This document shows, one piece after another, positions 22,408-64,000 of a DNA stretch of 64,000 bases (position 1 is the first letter of the stretch; every line of letters begins with the position of its first letter). The stretch spans positions 3,051 through 67,050 of the forward strand of contig PAQF01000017.1 in the NCBI GenBank assembly GCA_002709695.1, read 5' to 3'. Position numbers and translations under genes: made by a program. The notes beneath the pieces are model-generated. The model did not search any database, was not told where the DNA came from, and saw only the letters and a program-made list of their open reading frames with translations. This DNA is from Candidatus Poribacteria bacterium. Lineage in GTDB: Bacteria; Poribacteria; WGA-4E; UBA9662.

Positions 22408-22974
22408 ATGGCTTGGATCAAAACTATACCATGGTCTGCGGCAAACAAACAGTTGCGTGATGCCATTAAAAAACAAAAAAAACTATACCCTACTGAATAT
22501 GGCATACCAGATCACGCTTTAGATCAAATAAACGAAAGTATTGTTAATTCCCACAGCCTAATTCCAGATGCTTTATACCATGCATTTGCGAATTTCGGTG
22601 TACTAATGTCACCCAAATTACCCTTAACCCGAAAACAACATGAAATGATTTCTACTGTCGTATCTGCTACTAACCAGTGTAAATACTGAACTAACTCTCA
22701 CGCAGAGTTTCTGCGTCAAGTAACGTTGGATGATAACCTAGTAGCATCCCTGATTAATGATTATACAACAGCACCTGTAAATCGAAGTGATGCTGTTATG
22801 CTGAATTATGCTGTAAAGTTAACAAAAGACTCTACCTCAATTACTTCCGCTGATCACAAGGAATTACGAACTGTCGGTTTCAACGATCAAGCCATTTTAC
22901 AGATTACGCTGATAGCAGCTTGGTTTAACTATATTAATCGGGTTGCCGACGCCCTTGGAATTGGGAAAGATTAA
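22408..22974 (+). CDS. AhpD-like / carboxymuconolactone decarboxylase (CMD) family protein; candidate selenoprotein with in-frame UGA (Sec) at 22687..22689
   Basis: ORFs 22408..22689 and 22726..22974 are in the same frame, separated only by TGA. Read-through gives ...SATNQ-C-K-Y-[TGA][10 protein letters not shown]..., reproducing the AhpD C-x-x-C-x3-H active-site spacing with TGA at the second Cys. Protein-like sequence continues for 95 more codons to TAA. A stable hairpin lies 10 nt downstream of the TGA. Confidence 0.6.
22700..22716 (+). promoter_or_regulatory. Candidate bacterial SECIS-like hairpin downstream of in-frame UGA
   Basis: ACGCAG-aguuu-CUGCGU: a perfect 6-bp stem with a U-rich/GU-containing 5-nt loop, starting 11 nt after the UGA codon. 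Confidence 0.4.
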
Positions 22975-22993
22975 AATAAATTACAAAAAAAAT

Positions 22994-25105
22994 ATGTTGT
23001 TGATCATTAGCCTAGTTTGTATCCCCGTGTGCCTTTTGATTGGTTCCAGTCTCTATTCGGAGCGTGCTAAACAAAAGAACTTATCAGAAAGCTTACAAGG
23101 TATGCCCCAATATCAAGTGGAAATTATGAGGGACACATGGGGGGTTCCTCACATTTTTGGGAAAACCGACGCAGATACCGCTCACGGGTTAGCTTACGCA
23201 CATGCAGAAGATGATTTTGAAACTATCCAAGAACTCTTGCTTACAATTAAAGGCAAACTGGCTTCGGTAAGGGGTAAAGACCTGGCTCCTTACGACTATT
23301 ATGTACAACTATTTCGAATATGGGATGATGTCAATGAAAAATACGATGCTCTTTCTGAGGACATTCGATCTGTGTGTGAGGCTTATGCCGACGGACTAAA
23401 TCTCTATGCATCTCAACATCCACAATTATTAGAACGAAACGTTTGGCCAGTAAAAGGTAAAGATATCGTCGCAGGTTTTGTTCATAAACTCCCTCTTTTT
23501 TTTGGAGTTGATAATGTACTGAAGCAAATTTATCAAGCCAAGGAAAACCCCAAAGTCAGCCAGGCTGGCTTAGGTTTACAACAAGGCATAGGCTCGAATT
23601 TTCTAGCTGTTGGCCCAAACCGCTCAGCAGATGGCGCCACCCGAGTTGCAATTAACACACACCAACCATGGGAAGGACCCGTGGCTTGGTATGAAGCTCA
23701 TGTTGTTAGCGAAGAAGGCCTAAACCTCTATGGAGGACTGTTCCCAGGTTCCCCCATCGTGTTACTAGGACACAATCAAAACTTAGCTTGGGGACATACC
23801 GTCAATTACCCTGACCTGATTGATGTGTACAAACTGGAAATCAATCCCAAAAATCCCAACGAATACCGGTTTGATGGCCAATGGAAATCATTGAAAATTC
23901 GAAAAGTGCCTATTGAAATCCAAATCTGGCGCAATTTACGATGGACTTTTCACCGAGAAACACTCTGGTCGGAACATGGCCCAGCGTTGCGAAATGCCAA
24001 CGGTGTTTATGCTATTCGTTATGCTGGCATAGGAGAAATCGGGCAAGTTGAGCAATGGTATCGTATGGGAAAAGCCAAAAACTTGGAGGAATTTAAAGTG
24101 GCTATGCGATTGCATACAATTCCGATGTTCAATACCGGATATGCTGACCGAAAAGGTAACCTCTATTATGTTTATAACGCCTTACTTCCCTTGAGAAATG
24201 AACAATATAATTGGGCAGGCTACGTTCCAGGAAATAGCTCCAGTACTTTATGGACGAGCTATCTTCCTTACGACCAACTGCCACAGGTTGAGAATCCACC
24301 TTCCGCATTTCTACAAAGTTGCAATAACAATCCATTTCAAACGACAACAGGTATCGGCAATCCAAATCCATTGAAATACTCACCAAACTTTGGAATCGAA
24401 GATATAATGACTAACCGTGCCCTACGAGCTAGAGAGCTTTTTGGAAACAACCCATCTGTAACTCGAAAAGAGTTTTTTCAGTATAAATTCGATAAATATT
24501 ATTCAGCAGATTCTGTCTTAGCCGAAAGTATCAACCGTTTTTTGGAAGAAGCAAAAACCGAAGACTTAGAACTGACCAAAGCAATCGATCTTATTCGATC
24601 TTGGGATCTCCAAACTAACATCGATAATCGGGCAGCAGCGCTAGCAATTCTAACTTTCCGGCCTAAGGATAGACCTGCTGATTTCCAATATGACTATTTT
24701 CTGTTTTTAAAAAGATTAAAGGAAAATGTTGATCTTTTTAAAAAAAACTTTGGTCGAATTGATGTACCGTGGGGGAAAGTCAGCCGCATAATCCGCGGGG
24801 ACATCGATCTCCCTATTGCTGGTGGCCCTGATATTTTACGTGCAATCTATAGTCAAGTTATCAATGACGGCCGCTTAAAAGGTGTGGCTGGCGATTGCTT
24901 CTTTCAAATTGTGGAATGGGACAAACAAGGAAACTTGCAAAGCTGGGTGATCAATCAATACGGAAGTCATTCTTGGAAGAAAACTTCGCCTCACTATAAC
25001 GACCAATCGCCACTATTCGCCCAAGAGAAAATGAGACCAAGCTGGTTTAACAAAGAGGACATTCTAAAAAACCTCGAACGCAGATATTCACCAAGGCAAA
25101 ATTAA
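22994..25105 (+). CDS. Penicillin amidase (S45) family Ntn-hydrolase (acylase), secreted
   Basis: Start refined to MLLIISLVCIPVCLL (signal/TM). GIGSNFLAVGPNRSADGATRVAINTHQPWEGPVAWYEAH matches the penicillin/AHL acylase beta-subunit N-terminus with nucleophilic Ser; about 700 aa is the typical family length. Confidence 0.65.
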   Translation: MLLIISLVCIPVCLLIGSSLYSERAKQKNLSESLQGMPQYQVEIMRDTWGVPHIFGKTDADTAHGLAYAHAEDDFETIQELLLTIKGKLASVRGKDLAPYDYYVQLFRIWDDVNEKYDALSEDIRSVCEAYADGLNLYASQHPQLLERNVWPVKGKDIVAGFVHKLPLFFGVDNVLKQIYQAKENPKVSQAGLGLQQGIGSNFLAVGPNRSADGATRVAINTHQPWEGPVAWYEAHVVSEEGLNLYGGLFPGSPIVLLGHNQNLAWGHTVNYPDLIDVYKLEINPKNPNEYRFDGQWKSLKIRKVPIEIQIWRNLRWTFHRETLWSEHGPALRNANGVYAIRYAGIGEIGQVEQWYRMGKAKNLEEFKVAMRLHTIPMFNTGYADRKGNLYYVYNALLPLRNEQYNWAGYVPGNSSSTLWTSYLPYDQLPQVENPPSAFLQSCNNNPFQTTTGIGNPNPLKYSPNFGIEDIMTNRALRARELFGNNPSVTRKEFFQYKFDKYYSADSVLAESINRFLEEAKTEDLELTKAIDLIRSWDLQTNIDNRAAALAILTFRPKDRPADFQYDYFLFLKRLKENVDLFKKNFGRIDVPWGKVSRIIRGDIDLPIAGGPDILRAIYSQVINDGRLKGVAGDCFFQIVEWDKQGNLQSWVINQYGSHSWKKTSPHYNDQSPLFAQEKMRPSWFNKEDILKNLERRYSPRQN

Positions 25106-59128: not shown

Positions 59129-59332
59129 CTTACTGGTATTATGTAAACTGACTTCACGCTTAAAATTTGTTTTTTTCAATTTCATAATCAACATACTACA
59201 GAACACATCTCAGATAATTTATCTGCCCCATCTAATGTATAATAAAAATGTACATTCAACTCATATTTACACAGGTTTTAATATTTAAAACAGTAACTTT
59301 TTTTATTGTCCACCTCCCACCAAAATAGTATA

Positions 59333-60175
59333 ATGGAAATAGTCATGGAATCTGCTCAAACTCCTATTTCAACTGACCAATCACTACGCAACCGCATGCG
59401 TAAATTCTATGAGACCTCCGAAGCATACAAGAACCTACTAAACCAACATAATCACGTTTATCTGAAATCTTATGTTGATCTCGTCGATTGGTACACACCA
59501 TCGGACGAATATACGCTTGACCTAGGTTGTGGAAACGGAATTTCGTCCAAAATGCTACATGACCGAGGTAGAAACGTTGTTGGCGTAGATATTTCACCAC
59601 TCTTTCTCGCAGAAACAAAAAAATGGGAGAACGACACTCTAAAGTATTTTGTAGGCGACGCCTTAAGCCTTGATTTTGAATCGGAGCAATTTGGTGTTGT
59701 ATGCTCAAACGAGTTAATTGAACACACTCCTGATGTAGAAGCAACTCTTCTGGAAATGATCCGTGTTACCCGAAAAGGTGGTCGAATTGTCGTTGCTGGC
59801 CCCAACTTGTGTTCACCAATAATGCCACTTCTTGATTTTACACAGATGACTTTCGGAAGAGACGGCAGACCAATTTGGGCCGAGACAAAACAACAAGCTT
59901 TTAAAAACTTATTGAAAAACACAAAACTCTATTTCAAAAAGCGTTTTGGACAACAACCAAACTTTCTATATCGTGAGCCAGATCTTGAAAACCAAATTAT
60001 CGGAGGAGATGCAGATAGTACATACATCGCTAGTCCCATTGATCTAGAGAAATTTTTTCGGCAACAAGGACTACGTATCAAAAAACTCTGTGTCGGTTTC
60101 GGATTCAAAGGAAAAATAATGGCGACCTTTTTTCCAAGAACCAGCTTGTATATCAGTATGGTCATTGAAAAATGA
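59333..60175 (+). CDS. Class I SAM-dependent methyltransferase (Methyltransf_11-like)
   Basis: TLDLGCGNGISSKML (motif I), VGVDISP (motif II), VVCSNELIEHTPD (motif III). The ATG at 59333 is preferred over the TTG listed in the ORF track. Confidence 0.6.
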   Translation: MEIVMESAQTPISTDQSLRNRMRKFYETSEAYKNLLNQHNHVYLKSYVDLVDWYTPSDEYTLDLGCGNGISSKMLHDRGRNVVGVDISPLFLAETKKWENDTLKYFVGDALSLDFESEQFGVVCSNELIEHTPDVEATLLEMIRVTRKGGRIVVAGPNLCSPIMPLLDFTQMTFGRDGRPIWAETKQQAFKNLLKNTKLYFKKRFGQQPNFLYREPDLENQIIGGDADSTYIASPIDLEKFFRQQGLRIKKLCVGFGFKGKIMATFFPRTSLYISMVIEK

Positions 60176-60996
60176 ATATTCAACCTGCCGATTTTGTGTT
60201 GGAAATCGGTAGTGGACACAATCCAAAAGCAAGATCAGACGTTCTATGTGATAAGTTCATTGATGACGATCACCAACGCGGTGGAGGGATCGTCACAGAC
60301 CGAAGTATGATTGAAGCCGATGGACAACATCTGCCTTTTGCCGACAATTCATTTGACTATGTAATCTGTTCACATGTACTTGAACACGTAGAAGACCCTA
60401 AATTAATGATTTCCGAACTAGAGCGTGTTGCCTCGCGCGGCTATATAGAAGTACCATCAGAAATCTCAGAGCGCCTTTACGGATGGCCCTACCATCTATG
60501 GATTTTTAACCTTATCGATGGTAAACTGTTAATTCAACAGAAAGTTGATCCAGATCAATTTGGCCAACTATTCCATACACTGGTAGCCAAAGATAAAGGT
60601 TTTTTACGTTTCCATAAGAAATATCACCCAATATTTTTAGTACATTATGAATGGGAAAAAAACATTGATTATGAATTTCGTGAATCAAACACACCAACAT
60701 TGGACTTCAACTCGGCCGAAATTATTAACAACATATTAAAAGAGATCGAGGCCATGCCATGGCTAAAGAAATGGCAGCCCTTCATCAAGGACCTTATTCC
60801 GAAAACCGCAGTTTCCAATTTTAAAAAAATGATATCAAAACAGCGACATAAACCAACTAAGACGCTACGTGATATCATAGTTTGTCCGAGTTGCAAAGAA
60901 AAAGTTAAATGGGAAGATAAACTTATCCACTGCAATCATTGCGATGCTGATTATCCCATTCTTGGTGGTATCCCCAGATTAACTCCAAAAACTTAA
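60172..60996 (+). CDS. SAM-dependent methyltransferase with C-terminal zinc-ribbon (Trm112-like) tail; ATGA overlap with upstream gene
   Basis: FVLEIGSGHNPKA...DNSFDYVICSHVLEHVEDP (MTase motifs); C-terminal CPSCKEKVKWEDKLIHCNHCDADYPILGGIPRL zinc ribbon. Confidence 0.55.
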   Translation: MNIQPADFVLEIGSGHNPKARSDVLCDKFIDDDHQRGGGIVTDRSMIEADGQHLPFADNSFDYVICSHVLEHVEDPKLMISELERVASRGYIEVPSEISERLYGWPYHLWIFNLIDGKLLIQQKVDPDQFGQLFHTLVAKDKGFLRFHKKYHPIFLVHYEWEKNIDYEFRESNTPTLDFNSAEIINNILKEIEAMPWLKKWQPFIKDLIPKTAVSNFKKMISKQRHKPTKTLRDIIVCPSCKEKVKWEDKLIHCNHCDADYPILGGIPRLTPKT

Positions 60997-61191
60997 GATG
61001 GAATTAGACCAATGTCTAGCGAGGAAAAAGCCAGAAAAATCGACACAACTACAAAACCATTTAGAGACGAACTACACCAAGAAATGATCTCGAGCCAAAG
61101 TAGCGTGGAGGCACATCAATACATAGTTGGGAAGATGCTGTACACCAAGCACTTATGACAACCACACAACACTTCCCCTCAATCAACAAAA

Positions 61192-61428
61192 TTGAAATCG
61201 TTCGTCAAACAGCCAAAGTCGAAAACGGCGCAATCTAAAGAATACAAATCTATTGTTCAATTACATTATCAAATTAGACATGATCTGGCTTCACAAGCTA
61301 CAACAGAACAACCATCAACAACAAATGCTGACGAACTCTCTAACCACCATGACACGACAGAAACACATATACAGCAAGATATCGCTAAACATTATCACGA
61401 TGTTCAAAAACTTGACAGAAAAAGATAA
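61192..61428 (+). CDS. Hypothetical small hydrophilic protein
   Basis: 78-aa ORF, low complexity (Q/T/H rich); no support beyond being an open frame in an otherwise empty 490-bp gap. Confidence 0.15.
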   Translation: MKSFVKQPKSKTAQSKEYKSIVQLHYQIRHDLASQATTEQPSTTNADELSNHHDTTETHIQQDIAKHYHDVQKLDRKR

Positions 61429-61493: not shown

Positions 61494-62720
61494 ATGCCTC
61501 AGATCAAAGTTTATACAACTGACTTCTGTCCATATTGTGATGTTGCAAAACGGATTCTAGAAAATAAGGAAATTGAGTACGAAGAAATAAATATCCATGG
61601 CAATCCCGAGATGCGCGACCATATCGAGGAACTCACAGGAAGACGTGACGTGCCACAAATTTTCATCGATGATCAACATATAGGTGATGATGACAATTTG
61701 GCTGAATTAGCTAGATCAGGAGAGTTAGACAAATTGCTAGAAAAAGAGGAAGGTAACACATTAGGACATAATAACAACACAATCGAAGAACGGAACGTAA
61801 TCATAATAGGTGGAGGCACAGCTGGATACGCCGCAGGGGTTTACACTTCTCGAGCCATGTTAGAACCGCTTCTGTTAGTAGGTGACACACTTGGTGGCCA
61901 ACTTTCACTTACGCTTGATCTCGAAAACTACCCAGGATATTTTGGTGATCAAGCAGGTGAATTCGTAAATGGACTTAAGGAACAAGCAGAAAATTTTGGC
62001 ACGGAAACTCGATTTGAATACGTTACGGAAGTCGACTTTAACAACCATCCATTTTCTGTTAAGACCTATGACAACCAATATGTAGCAAAATCCATCGTGA
62101 TATGCACTGGAGCTTCACCACGTACTCTTGATATTCCTGGAGAGAAAGAATATGGTGGACGAGGTGTTTCTTATTGTGCTACTTGTGACGGTTTTTTCTT
62201 TCAGGACCAAAGATTGATAGTTGTTGGTGGTGGTGACGCTGCACTAGAAGAGGGGATTTTCCTAACCAAATATGCCTCGGAAGTTATCATCGTCCATCGT
62301 CGCGATCAGCTTCGAGCCAGCCAAATCATGCAAGAACGAGCTTTTAAAAATGATAAAATTAAATTCATCTGGGATACCGTTGTTGACGAAATCCAAGGTG
62401 AAGAACAAAAAGTAACTGCAGCACTATTAAGAAATATCAAGACCAATGACACAGAAATATTTCCAATTGATGGAGTATTCATTTTCGTCGGTCATATACC
62501 AAATACTGAATTATTCAAAGGAGTTATTAACCTAAACGACCAAGGATACATTATTGTTGATGAAAAGCAACAAACAAGCATTGAAGGAATCTTCGCCGCT
62601 GGCGATGTGCATGACCACGTATTTCGGCAAGCGATCACAGCAGCCGGCACAGGCGCAGCTGCAGGCATCATGGCAGAAAAATTCGTTGCTGAACTTGAAA
62701 ACAGAGCCTACCCAGGGTAG
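61494..62720 (+). CDS. trxB: Glutaredoxin-like domain fused to thioredoxin-disulfide reductase (TrxB)
   Basis: N-terminal 80 aa: IKVYTTDFCPYCDVAKRIL...VPQIFIDDQHIGDDDNLAEL (Grx/NrdH fold, CPYC active site). Remainder: VIIIGGGTAGYAAGVY (FAD), CATCDGFFF (redox-active CxxC), VVGGGDAALEEG (NADPH) - low-molecular-weight TrxB. Confidence 0.8.
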   Translation: MPQIKVYTTDFCPYCDVAKRILENKEIEYEEINIHGNPEMRDHIEELTGRRDVPQIFIDDQHIGDDDNLAELARSGELDKLLEKEEGNTLGHNNNTIEERNVIIIGGGTAGYAAGVYTSRAMLEPLLLVGDTLGGQLSLTLDLENYPGYFGDQAGEFVNGLKEQAENFGTETRFEYVTEVDFNNHPFSVKTYDNQYVAKSIVICTGASPRTLDIPGEKEYGGRGVSYCATCDGFFFQDQRLIVVGGGDAALEEGIFLTKYASEVIIVHRRDQLRASQIMQERAFKNDKIKFIWDTVVDEIQGEEQKVTAALLRNIKTNDTEIFPIDGVFIFVGHIPNTELFKGVINLNDQGYIIVDEKQQTSIEGIFAAGDVHDHVFRQAITAAGTGAAAGIMAEKFVAELENRAYPG

Positions 62721-62745
62721 GTATAAAACAATAGCGAGGTAAAAT

Positions 62746-62991
62746 ATGGGACTTGATTGGAAACCACGTCATCGTGATATCGTAATAGGTAATATTCCAT
62801 GGTTGGCACGCATCACTGATAAAGCGCGTGCAAAAATCGAAGGTACACTTGGAGACTATGTCTACCCCTGACCAGCTGATCAAAAGTTCCTGGAGGAACT
62901 TAAGGTAAAGGCTGGGCAATTTACTGAAATTGTACAAGAAAATCCATCAGACGAGGACATGATCGCAGCAATTAGATCCCTCAGGGATTAA
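62746..62991 (+). CDS. Small (81-aa) conserved-looking protein with in-frame UGA; candidate selenoprotein immediately downstream of Grx-TrxB
   Basis: GAGG RBS 6 nt before ATG 62746. Frame reads MGLDWKPRHRDIVIGNIPWLARITDKARAKIEGTLGDYVYP-[TGA 62869..62871]-PADQKFLEELKVKAGQFTEIVQENPSDEDMIAAIRSLRD-TAA. The nested hairpin begins in the first nucleotide after the TGA. The motif GDYVYP-U-PADQ resembles, from memory, the G-E-Y-x-Y-P-C-P-x-D motif of small DUF5069-type proteins. Not in the ORF track because of the internal TGA. Confidence 0.5.
62872..62915 (+). promoter_or_regulatory. Candidate SECIS-like nested hairpin immediately 3' of the in-frame UGA
   Basis: Outer stem CCAGC(62872-62876)/GCUGG(62911-62915); inner stem GUUCC(62886-62890)/GGAAC(62895-62899) with apical loop UGGA at +20..+23 relative to the UGA. 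Confidence 0.4.
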
Positions 62992-63035: not shown

Positions 63036-64000
63036 TTGGATTTAACAGATTGGCGGACCGAAATTGATGAGATCGATGAGCAAATACTGTCATTACTGTA
63101 CAAACGTTCAAAATTAGCAATCAAAGTGGGAAAATTAAAGGAGGAAACTGGAAAAACCAGTATTTATGCACCACATCGTGAAAAACAAATTATAGATCGA
63201 CTGAAATCGGTCAACGGCAACCAGTTTCCAGAAAAGCAACTGGAAAAGATCTTCACCGAGATTATATCCGCTTGCAGATCGCTGGAAAAAAGAATACAAG
63301 TTGCCTATCTTGGCCCCCTTGGTAGTCACGGGCACACAGTAAGTCTCGAACATTTTGGATCAGCAGTTGAATTCATTCCGATCGTGCCGCAAACGGATAT
63401 TTTCGCCGAGGTAGAATCGAACCGGGCGGACTATGGCATTGTAGCCATCGAAAATTCCACCTATGGCACTGTTCGAGATGTCCTAGAAATGTTTTTGCAT
63501 TCTCCACTCCAGATCTGCTCAGAAAGACTACTTCCAATCAGACACCATCTACTTGCATTATCAACCCCAAAAGATATTTCGAGGATCTACTCACACCCCC
63601 AATGTTTTGCACAGTGCAGGCGATGGTTACATCAGAACTTACCTAACATCGAACAAATCGAAGTAGCAAGCACATCCGTTGCCGCTGAGATTGCCAGCAA
63701 AGAACACACATCTGCTGCAATTGCCAGTAGCCTAGCTAGTGAAATTTATCAGGTTCCTATTGCCGCCGATTCTATAATGGACAACCCAAACAACATGACA
63801 AGATTCTTGGTTATTGGAAACCACTCTGCGCAAAAGTCTGGGAACGATCGCACATCGATTCTTTTCGGCATAAATGATGAGGTAGGCGCATTATGCCAAA
63901 TCCTAAGTATTTTGGAATCGAACCAAATCAATATGAGTAAAATAGATTCATTTCCATCACAAAATAAACCGTGGGAATATGTTTTTTTTGCTGACCTTGA
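63036..64000 (+). CDS. pheA: Bifunctional chorismate mutase / prephenate dehydratase (P-protein), partial: 3' end beyond window
   Basis: Manual translation from TTG 63036 (preceded by in-frame TAA and GGAG) gives LDLTDWRTEIDEIDEQILSLLYKRSKLAIKVGKLKEE... (CM_2 domain), ...RIQVAYLGPLGSHGHTV... (PDT domain), ...SILFGINDEVGALCQILSIL...MSKIDSFPSQNKPWEYVFFADL (ACT domain with ESRP-like motif). Absent from the ORF track because no stop falls in the window. Confidence 0.75.
   Translation, partial: MDLTDWRTEIDEIDEQILSLLYKRSKLAIKVGKLKEETGKTSIYAPHREKQIIDRLKSVNGNQFPEKQLEKIFTEIISACRSLEKRIQVAYLGPLGSHGHTVSLEHFGSAVEFIPIVPQTDIFAEVESNRADYGIVAIENSTYGTVRDVLEMFLHSPLQICSERLLPIRHHLLALSTPKDISRIYSHPQCFAQCRRWLHQNLPNIEQIEVASTSVAAEIASKEHTSAAIASSLASEIYQVPIAADSIMDNPNNMTRFLVIGNHSAQKSGNDRTSILFGINDEVGALCQILSILESNQINMSKIDSFPSQNKPWEYVFFADL

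Follow-up and report, generated by a model that had tools for sequence, protein, structure and literature searches.

The 64,000-nucleotide stretch of Candidatus Poribacteria DNA analyzed here (the window) very probably harbors, as judged by comparison with related sequences, a genuine selenocysteine (Sec)-encoding gene of the DUF5069 family together with its SECIS. The gene, a short-form DUF5069 selenoprotein coding sequence of 81 residues defined by translation, Pfam matching, and homologues, spans positions 62746 to 62991 of the plus strand. Direct reading of the sequence places a Shine-Dalgarno-like GAGG at positions 62736 to 62739 (+), 6 nt 5′ of the ATG at 62746, from which 41 sense codons (the ATG included) lead to an in-frame UGA at codon 42 (positions 62869 to 62871, +; motif Y-V-Y-P-U-P-A-D), its reading as Sec being based on a census of homologue codons, while a further 39 in-frame codons lead to a TAA that ends at position 62991. 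The product reads MGLDWKPRHRDIVIGNIPWLARITDKARAKIEGTLGDYVYP-U-PADQKFLEELKVKAGQFTEIVQENPSDEDMIAAIRSLRD, where PADQKFLEELKVKAGQFTEIVQENPSDEDMIAAIRSLRD is specified by the 39 codons 3′ of the UGA. The ribosome binding site, start codon, TGA, and extended frame described in the initial annotation are thus all present in the sequence, and in the family alignment both sides of the UGA display conserved residues with synonymous variation.

The U-to-C version of the protein matched the Pfam family DUF5069 (PF16798) with 56 bits and an E value of 6e-15, against a gathering threshold of 27 bits, residues 7 to 77 aligning with model positions 4 to 74 of 133 and the match crossing the UGA position without a break. 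The initially suggested resemblance to a DUF5069-like family was thereby substantiated. The full-length PF16798 domain (about 133 positions) was not found in the protein, which covers the N-terminal half of the model alone, and the window protein and its relatives of 81 to 91 amino acids are, on the basis of these alignments, taken to constitute a short-form subfamily of DUF5069. An NCBIfam scan of the window protein returned no model at an E value of 1 or below, which was taken as evidence that it lies outside every modelled selenoprotein family. A homologue search of 5.8 billion proteins recovered 38 full-length homologues, most of which comprise 81 to 91 residues, and among 1.84 billion representatives a profile search, for which a Cys-only alignment served as the query, recovered 696 family members and no more. 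Domain fusions within the family are mixed, encompassing cupin, methyltransferase, AI-2E transporter, DLH, and DUF2249 partners as well as tandem repeats. Tandem DUF5069 arrays of two to eight domains were observed in P0040, P0046, P0048, P0049 (about 430 amino acids), and P0144 (1158 amino acids, with eight matched stretches); such arrays mostly carry Ser, Ala, or another residue in place of the Cys, and they probably represent a divergent, non-catalytic branch, as judged from these substitutions.

Position 42 of the 38 homologues is occupied by Cys in 24 and by “W” in 11, all of the latter originating from short ENA contigs, while two end exactly at the ...YP preceding it. Cys is therefore found exactly where the initial annotation had predicted it. 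The “W” at this position corresponds to TGA in the DNA (as examined for P0001), and the DNA of the YP-truncated proteins runs on in frame after the TGA, into conserved sequence. At the nucleotide level, the codon in the UGA column was TGA in 120, TGC in 32, and TGT in 7 of 159 usable related loci, a recurrence of TGA in one frame and column that greatly exceeds chance. At every locus, 39 to 50 in-frame codons after the UGA are conserved, and since the invariant residues 3′ of the UGA each employ two to five synonymous codons, the downstream half of the gene is under protein-level purifying selection. The 39 downstream codons consequently behave as real coding sequence, as had been proposed.

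These data bear directly on the reading in which the UGA is a true stop, yielding a 41-residue peptide (perhaps accompanied by a separate downstream peptide) or reflecting a pseudogene of a Cys-form DUF5069 protein. Gene callers do report ORFs of 46 and 40 amino acids in two related loci (L002 and L003), and truncated entries are common in protein databases. However, the TGA is retained in frame at 120 loci in at least two deep clades without frameshifts and with purifying selection downstream, the Pfam domain and the fold of the solved family member 3OMD are continuous across the site, and a covarying hairpin specific to Sec forms lies at the canonical distance (see below). Furthermore, fixation in 79 of 80 Poribacteria genomes (the best 80 of 188) would not be expected of a pseudogene. 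Termination at codon 42 is, on this evidence, extremely improbable: homologues neither all end at the site nor lack conserved sequence beyond it, and the search for further Sec-containing members that had been advised returned many homologues with TGA in the same column.

The distribution of the Sec form was assessed by a genome scan with one genome per species, which returned 188 relatives; the best 80 of these belong almost without exception to Candidatus Poribacteria, apart from a few labelled simply “uncultured bacterium,” and carry TGA at codon 42 in 79 cases and TGC in one (KatS3mg115). The closest genomes among the matches listed are the pelagic Poribacteria metagenome-assembled genomes NP41 and OC6_3000m_MAG_233, whose DUF5069 proteins share 96% and 93% identity, respectively, with that of the window. 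A metagenome scan revealed a second marine Sec clade with the motif LDFKPRARG...[YF]P-U-[GAPR]AD..FLEE, the named Cys relatives of which belong to the Latescibacteria and Gemmatimonadota, and also further Cys clades. Across 170 single-domain representatives of the family, the aligned column holds Cys in 131, a Sec-like state (W or truncation) in 25, and Ser in 12. The Ser forms fall mostly in divergent subfamilies with a different local motif, some being tandem-repeat proteins; the occurrence of Ser at the aligned site in some divergent members was counted against the Sec/redox explanation.

One Cys form, P0006 (TGT; L166, positions 582 to 827), retains the exact SECIS core GTTCCTGGAGGAAC, and its close relatives L084 and L085 carry TGA. 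Because this core still matches the Sec sequence, the comparison suggests a recent switch from Sec to Cys (or from Cys to Sec).

Public databases represent the Sec forms poorly. Across the two protein searches, the NCBI-sourced matches were all Cys forms, and the only traces of Sec forms were fragments and proteins mistranslated with “W.” The Sec-specifying TGA is called Trp in P0001, P0002, P0005, P0007 to P0009, P0011, P0013, P0016, P0018, P0020, and P0218 (all from ENA contigs) and also in L001, these miscalls occurring on short low-GC contigs and apparently arising from a code-4 model; other public DUF5069 gene calls stop at YP. Because the TGA is either called Trp or taken as a stop after YP, DUF5069 database entries are systematically wrong at the key residue.

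The ENA calls are in line with the reading in which the UGA specifies a standard amino acid, whether by reassignment to Trp or Gly (genetic codes 4 and 25) or by near-cognate read-through. This possibility is regarded as highly unlikely. The W calls derive from short contigs translated under code 4, in which the DNA reads TGA; the homologue column holds Cys and never TGG-encoded Trp or Gly; and the SECIS-type hairpin is conserved in TGA forms only. Within the window itself, TGA closes 9 of 46 long ORFs, including those with ATGA and GTGA stop/start overlaps, and thus serves as a normal stop codon outside this gene. The window also contains a gene of a known CxxU selenoprotein family, as detailed below.

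This second UGA-containing gene, located at positions 22408 to 22974 (+), was found by a read-through scan of the window and encodes an AhpD-like peroxidase-related selenoprotein with its TGA at positions 22687 to 22689 in a C-K-Y-U (CxxU) motif. Its product matched NCBIfam model TIGR01926 with 113 bits (cut-off, 82), and the AhpD-like TIGR01926 CxxU proteins are a listed selenoprotein family (PMC13188914). The claim that the window holds a second UGA-recoding gene was accordingly upheld, the gene proving to be a member of a known family, and its presence supports, at the level of sequence, Sec decoding in the source genome. The region downstream of its TGA contains a 7-bp hairpin (ACGCAGA-GUU-UCUGCGU), the fold of which is no more stable than that of shuffled sequences (z = 0.06), and the 3′ end of the gene overlaps the next long ORF (positions 22943 to 25105) by 32 nt. 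ARAGORN detected no tRNA in the 64-kb window; related loci totalling 1.04 Mb yielded no tRNA-Sec either, an absence expected by chance for these loci, and none of selA, selB, selC, or selD lies within the 64-kb window. Sec-containing group 4 hydrogenases have been reported in Poribacteria (PMC13582414), and SelA/SelB have been reported in most sponge-symbiont bins (PMC5649159).

A conserved 7-bp SECIS core was located at positions 62884 to 62901 (+) on the basis of folding and covariation, its 5′ arm AAGUUCC (62884 to 62890) and 3′ arm GGAACUU (62895 to 62901) enclosing a UGGA loop (62891 to 62894) which begins 19 nt after the UGA; the core as a whole overlaps the codons for K47-F-L-E-E-L52. 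In the minimum free energy (MFE) structure this core is nested within an outer stem, CCAGC(U)/(G)GCUGG, with AUC...GGU lower helices (positions 62872 to 62915, +). The 62-nt region folds with -19.3 kcal/mol (z = -2.8), a value equalled by 1 of 200 dinucleotide shuffles. The bSECIS model of Zhang and Gladyshev, as quoted in PMC13188914 and applied here directly to sequences, specifies a 3- to 9-nt apical loop on a 4- to 16-bp stem, a G among the first two nucleotides of the loop, a UGA-to-loop distance of 16 to 37 nt, and an MFE of -7.5 kcal/mol or below. The window sequence agrees with this model in all four respects when the region MFE of -19.3 kcal/mol is used, the hairpin alone reaching about -6.7 kcal/mol, so that the energy limit is attained solely with the surrounding region.

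A qualifying bSECIS hairpin was present in all 107 distinct Sec-form sequences, each with a region MFE of -7.5 kcal/mol or below; the loop is UGGA in 104 of these, and it lies 19 nt from the UGA in 101 and 22 nt in five (four of them one-codon insertion variants). Among 29 Cys forms, 15 contained any qualifying hairpin, at scattered positions and with unrelated loops. The upper helix is paired in 90.9% of the cells of the 107-sequence Sec-form alignment, with 85 double-change cells and a covariation score of 0.296, compared to 0.09 for shuffles and at most 0.13 for slid controls; the same hairpin columns in Cys forms are 62% paired. The fifth stem pair (21-34) is GC in 73, CG in 28, and AU in 3 sequences, the Poribacteria having G-C and the second clade C-G, and the two outer stem pairs also switch type between the clades. 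The lower helices of the window fold are paired in 54 to 58% of the cells of the family alignment and, because they are unconserved, the full nested structure was rejected as the functional element, the outer helix being confined to the window and the sequences most closely related to it. Thus, of the nested hairpin originally described after the TGA, both parts exist in the sequence, but conservation extends to the inner hairpin alone, the outer CCAGC/GCUGG helix being 54% paired.

Codon usage points in the same direction. In 77 distinct Poribacterial Sec genes, F48 is encoded by TTC in 100%, L49 by CTG in 99% (out of six possible codons), E50 by GAG in 100%, and E51 by GAA in 99%; synonymous entropy at codons 48 to 51 is consequently close to zero, compared to mostly 0.7 to 2.2 bits at other invariant residues and about 0.3 at D4 and K6. 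Three Cys forms possess the FLEE peptide: one is encoded by TTT-CTT-GAA-GAA, by which the hairpin is lost, one by TTC-CTT-GAG-GAA, by which the loop G is lost, and one retains the Sec sequence. Such FLEE Cys forms (L161 and L164) have already drifted from the SECIS core. The view that the inner hairpin behaves as a bacterial SECIS specific to Sec forms is supported by its covariation and by the lack of the element in Cys forms, in agreement with the original description of the hairpin as SECIS-like. An Rfam scan of the window at gathering thresholds returned nothing, Rfam being without a model for generic intragenic bSECIS elements.

The comparative evidence indicates that the UGA at codon 42 is very probably translated as selenocysteine through the usual bacterial pathway, in which SelB, together with Sec-tRNA(Sec), binds the intragenic SECIS, a 5- to 7-bp stem with a UGGA loop positioned 19 nt past the UGA, the hairpin overlapping the K-F-L-E-E-L codons. 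The resulting Sec42 is predicted to act as a catalytic or redox-active nucleophile devoid of a resolving Cys, which may cycle via a selenenic acid or a mixed selenenyl-sulfide to be reduced by an external thiol system. In the clade of the window, the co-oriented glutaredoxin-thioredoxin reductase (Grx-TrxB) fusion would be a candidate for this reducing system.

The AlphaFold2 (AF2) prediction for a Cys form with 73% identity is confident (pLDDT 88) and comprises four helices, residue 42 lying directly before helix 43-51. The fold is all-helical, its sole PDB match is 3OMD, and it is the same fold as that of this solved DUF5069 member. As the window protein contains no Cys, Sec42 is its only Cys-type residue and would constitute the lone nucleophile. 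Its motif, Y-x-Y-P-U-P-x-D, is invariant, as are residues R8, R10, R22, D25, and K26. The protein exhibits neither a thioredoxin-like fold nor a motif of the CxxC, UxxC, or CxxU type, and it therefore does not belong among the thioredoxin-fold oxidoreductases, which combine such a fold with a second Cys two residues from the Sec. The odds that Sec42 plays a redox role are put at about even, and a mechanism based on one selenol, redox or nucleophilic, with recycling by an external thiol system, is inferred.

The main functional rival accepts Sec insertion and holds that Sec42 binds or carries a metal (Cu, Hg, Fe-S, or similar), a persulfide or perselenide, or a small ligand instead of serving as a redox catalyst, by analogy with TusA- or rhodanese-type carriers or metallochaperones. 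A single chalcogen residue without a resolving Cys would suit such a role, the invariant charged residues R8, R10, R22, D25, and K26 may form a putative ligand site, the fusion partners (cupin, methyltransferase, AI-2E transporter, and DUF2249) are not classic redox domains, and several known selenoprotein families are metal binding or involved in sulfur transfer (PMC13188914, Table 1). Nevertheless, the protein has no metal-binding motif (CxxC, HxxC, or similar) and provides one candidate ligand atom per chain, and neighbors of redox type recur, each of three clades having its own (the Grx-TrxB fusion, an FNR-like reductase, or a thioredoxin-like/NHL protein); a carrier function is considered possible but the less probable of the two roles.

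The genomic neighborhood of the DUF5069 gene was compared across relatives, taking about 4 kb on each side of the gene and combining ORF clustering with Pfam. In the window, the gene is preceded by the Grx-TrxB fusion of 408 residues (positions 61494 to 62720, +; Pfam Glutaredoxin and Pyr_redox_2), which contains CPYC and CATC motifs and ends in TAG, and is followed by pheA (chorismate mutase/prephenate dehydratase/ACT; Pfam CM_2, PDT, and ACT), which extends from position 63036 (+) to 64000 and runs past the window end. The 25-nt distance from the fusion gene's TAG to the DUF5069 ATG, as initially given, is correct, and Pfam verified the domains of the fusion. No promoter-like or terminator-like site was found on the plus strand of the 25-nt gap, and the two genes are probably cotranscribed.

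Grx-TrxB adjacency was, however, encountered in seven places only, namely the window and L001, L004, L005, L024, L028, and L045, which together represent the sub-clade of the window. TrxB was accordingly rejected as a conserved partner of the DUF5069 Sec form in general, and because the adjacency is unconserved, its role as reductant constitutes a weak, clade-specific hint; the initial proposal that linkage marks Grx-TrxB as the natural reductant did not hold beyond this sub-clade, UPF0182 being upstream in most Poribacteria. The comparison of neighborhoods, by which co-occurrence with trxB was checked, instead identified pheA (cluster c0) as the conserved neighbor, situated directly downstream in nearly all Poribacterial loci with a downstream flank and second downstream in three. 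The usual Poribacterial order is an unannotated ORF (cluster c2; an Omp85-containing gene in L002), UPF0182, DUF5069(Sec), pheA, and queG or an Rce1-like gene. From UPF0182 onward, this order is strongly conserved in L002 and L006 to L083, UPF0182 being a membrane protein of about 1060 amino acids, queG encoding epoxyqueuosine reductase, and the Rce1-like gene a protease. The second Sec clade carries an unannotated 350-residue protein upstream and an FNR-like reductase, a GT2 glycosyltransferase, or an ArgC-like dehydrogenase downstream, and one Cys clade adjoins a thioredoxin-like/NHL protein. Among neighbors and fusion partners, redox partners recur, and no single pathway or functional theme is apparent.

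Upstream of the trxB region, two ORFs (positions 59306 to 60175 and 60172 to 60996, +) joined by an ATGA overlap are syntenic in the closest Poribacteria (loci L004, L005, L024, L028, and L045). A further frame at positions 61012 to 61428 (+), composed of 48 amino acids, a TGA, and then 89 amino acids, was evaluated as a potential third UGA gene but discarded, being a disrupted copy of a neighboring ORF. Its counterpart in L004 and L005 is an unbroken ORF of 162 to 163 amino acids (motif SPHSWEDA...IKEYR) just 5′ of trxB, relative to which about 25 central residues are missing and the alignment near the TGA is poor. By this comparison, gene disruption or a difference in assembly appears more likely here than a Sec site.

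Systems of this kind are well established, and further selenoprotein families are being discovered on a regular basis. Like known genes with an intragenic SECIS, the window gene combines an in-frame UGA, a hairpin directly 3′ of it within the coding sequence, and Cys homologues, and it shares with them a 4-nt loop with G at position 2 and then G, an upper stem of 5 to 7 bp, and a 19-nt spacing. It differs in that the apical UUCC-UGGA-GGAA is unusually invariant across two deep clades, and since this apical hairpin is encoded by the conserved F-L-E-E peptide, protein and RNA constraints are superimposed. Known single-Sec families without a partner Cys include AhpD-like CxxU, GOS_B, GOS_C, DG, DF, DUF523, DUF1858, and DUF3179, which, similarly to DUF5069, are small, unassigned in function, recognized through a Sec/Cys pair plus SECIS, and largely derived from marine or symbiont metagenomes. 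There is no sequence relationship between these families, for which NF/TIGR models exist, and DUF5069, which is without a CxxU/UxxC motif or thioredoxin-like fold. Relative to the solved DUF5069 structure, PDB 3OMD from Leptospirillum rubarum (deposited as an “uncharacterized protein”), the window protein is shorter, covering positions 4 to 74 of the 133-position Pfam model, and contains Sec instead of Cys.

An inventory of May 2026 lists 119 prokaryotic selenoprotein families and subfamilies (PMC13188914); DUF5069/PF16798 is absent from its Table 1, and the “hypothetical” families in that table all have NF models, none of which the window protein matches. No paper naming DUF5069 or PF16798 was found in the searchable literature, and a search on 3OMD returned papers on 3-O-methyldopa only and none on the structure. 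The “hypothetical protein GOS_A” proved unrelated in sequence, and the DUF5069 motifs do not occur in the text-form GOS supplementary files. Within the searchable literature, DUF5069 thus represents an undescribed selenoprotein family with a standard decoding mechanism.

The finding adds a family missed by current inventories, NCBIfam models, and annotation pipelines, one whose public entries are 41- to 46-residue fragments or mistranslated “W” proteins, and the invariant UGGA hairpin offers a clean marker for finding and annotating these genes. A crystal structure of the domain (3OMD) dates from 2010, and the searchable literature proposes no function for it; the Sec/Cys pair marks a probable active-site residue and, because such a pair is among the few signals of a catalytic or redox residue to be had from sequence alone, furnishes a testable active-site hypothesis for DUF5069. 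It is conceivable, if rather unlikely, that the short form is the founder of a new selenoenzyme class. Such a class would be all-helical and not thioredoxin-like, with a single selenol at a helix N terminus and no resolving Cys, and would perform new chemistry, whether redox or group transfer, with recycling by Grx/Trx-type reductases; its Sec form would be nearly fixed in Poribacteria and would have independently arisen, or been retained, in a second marine lineage. For the Poribacteria, a major uncultivated phylum of sponge symbionts and pelagic bacteria, the near-universal Sec form of DUF5069 suggests a selenium requirement in the lineage.
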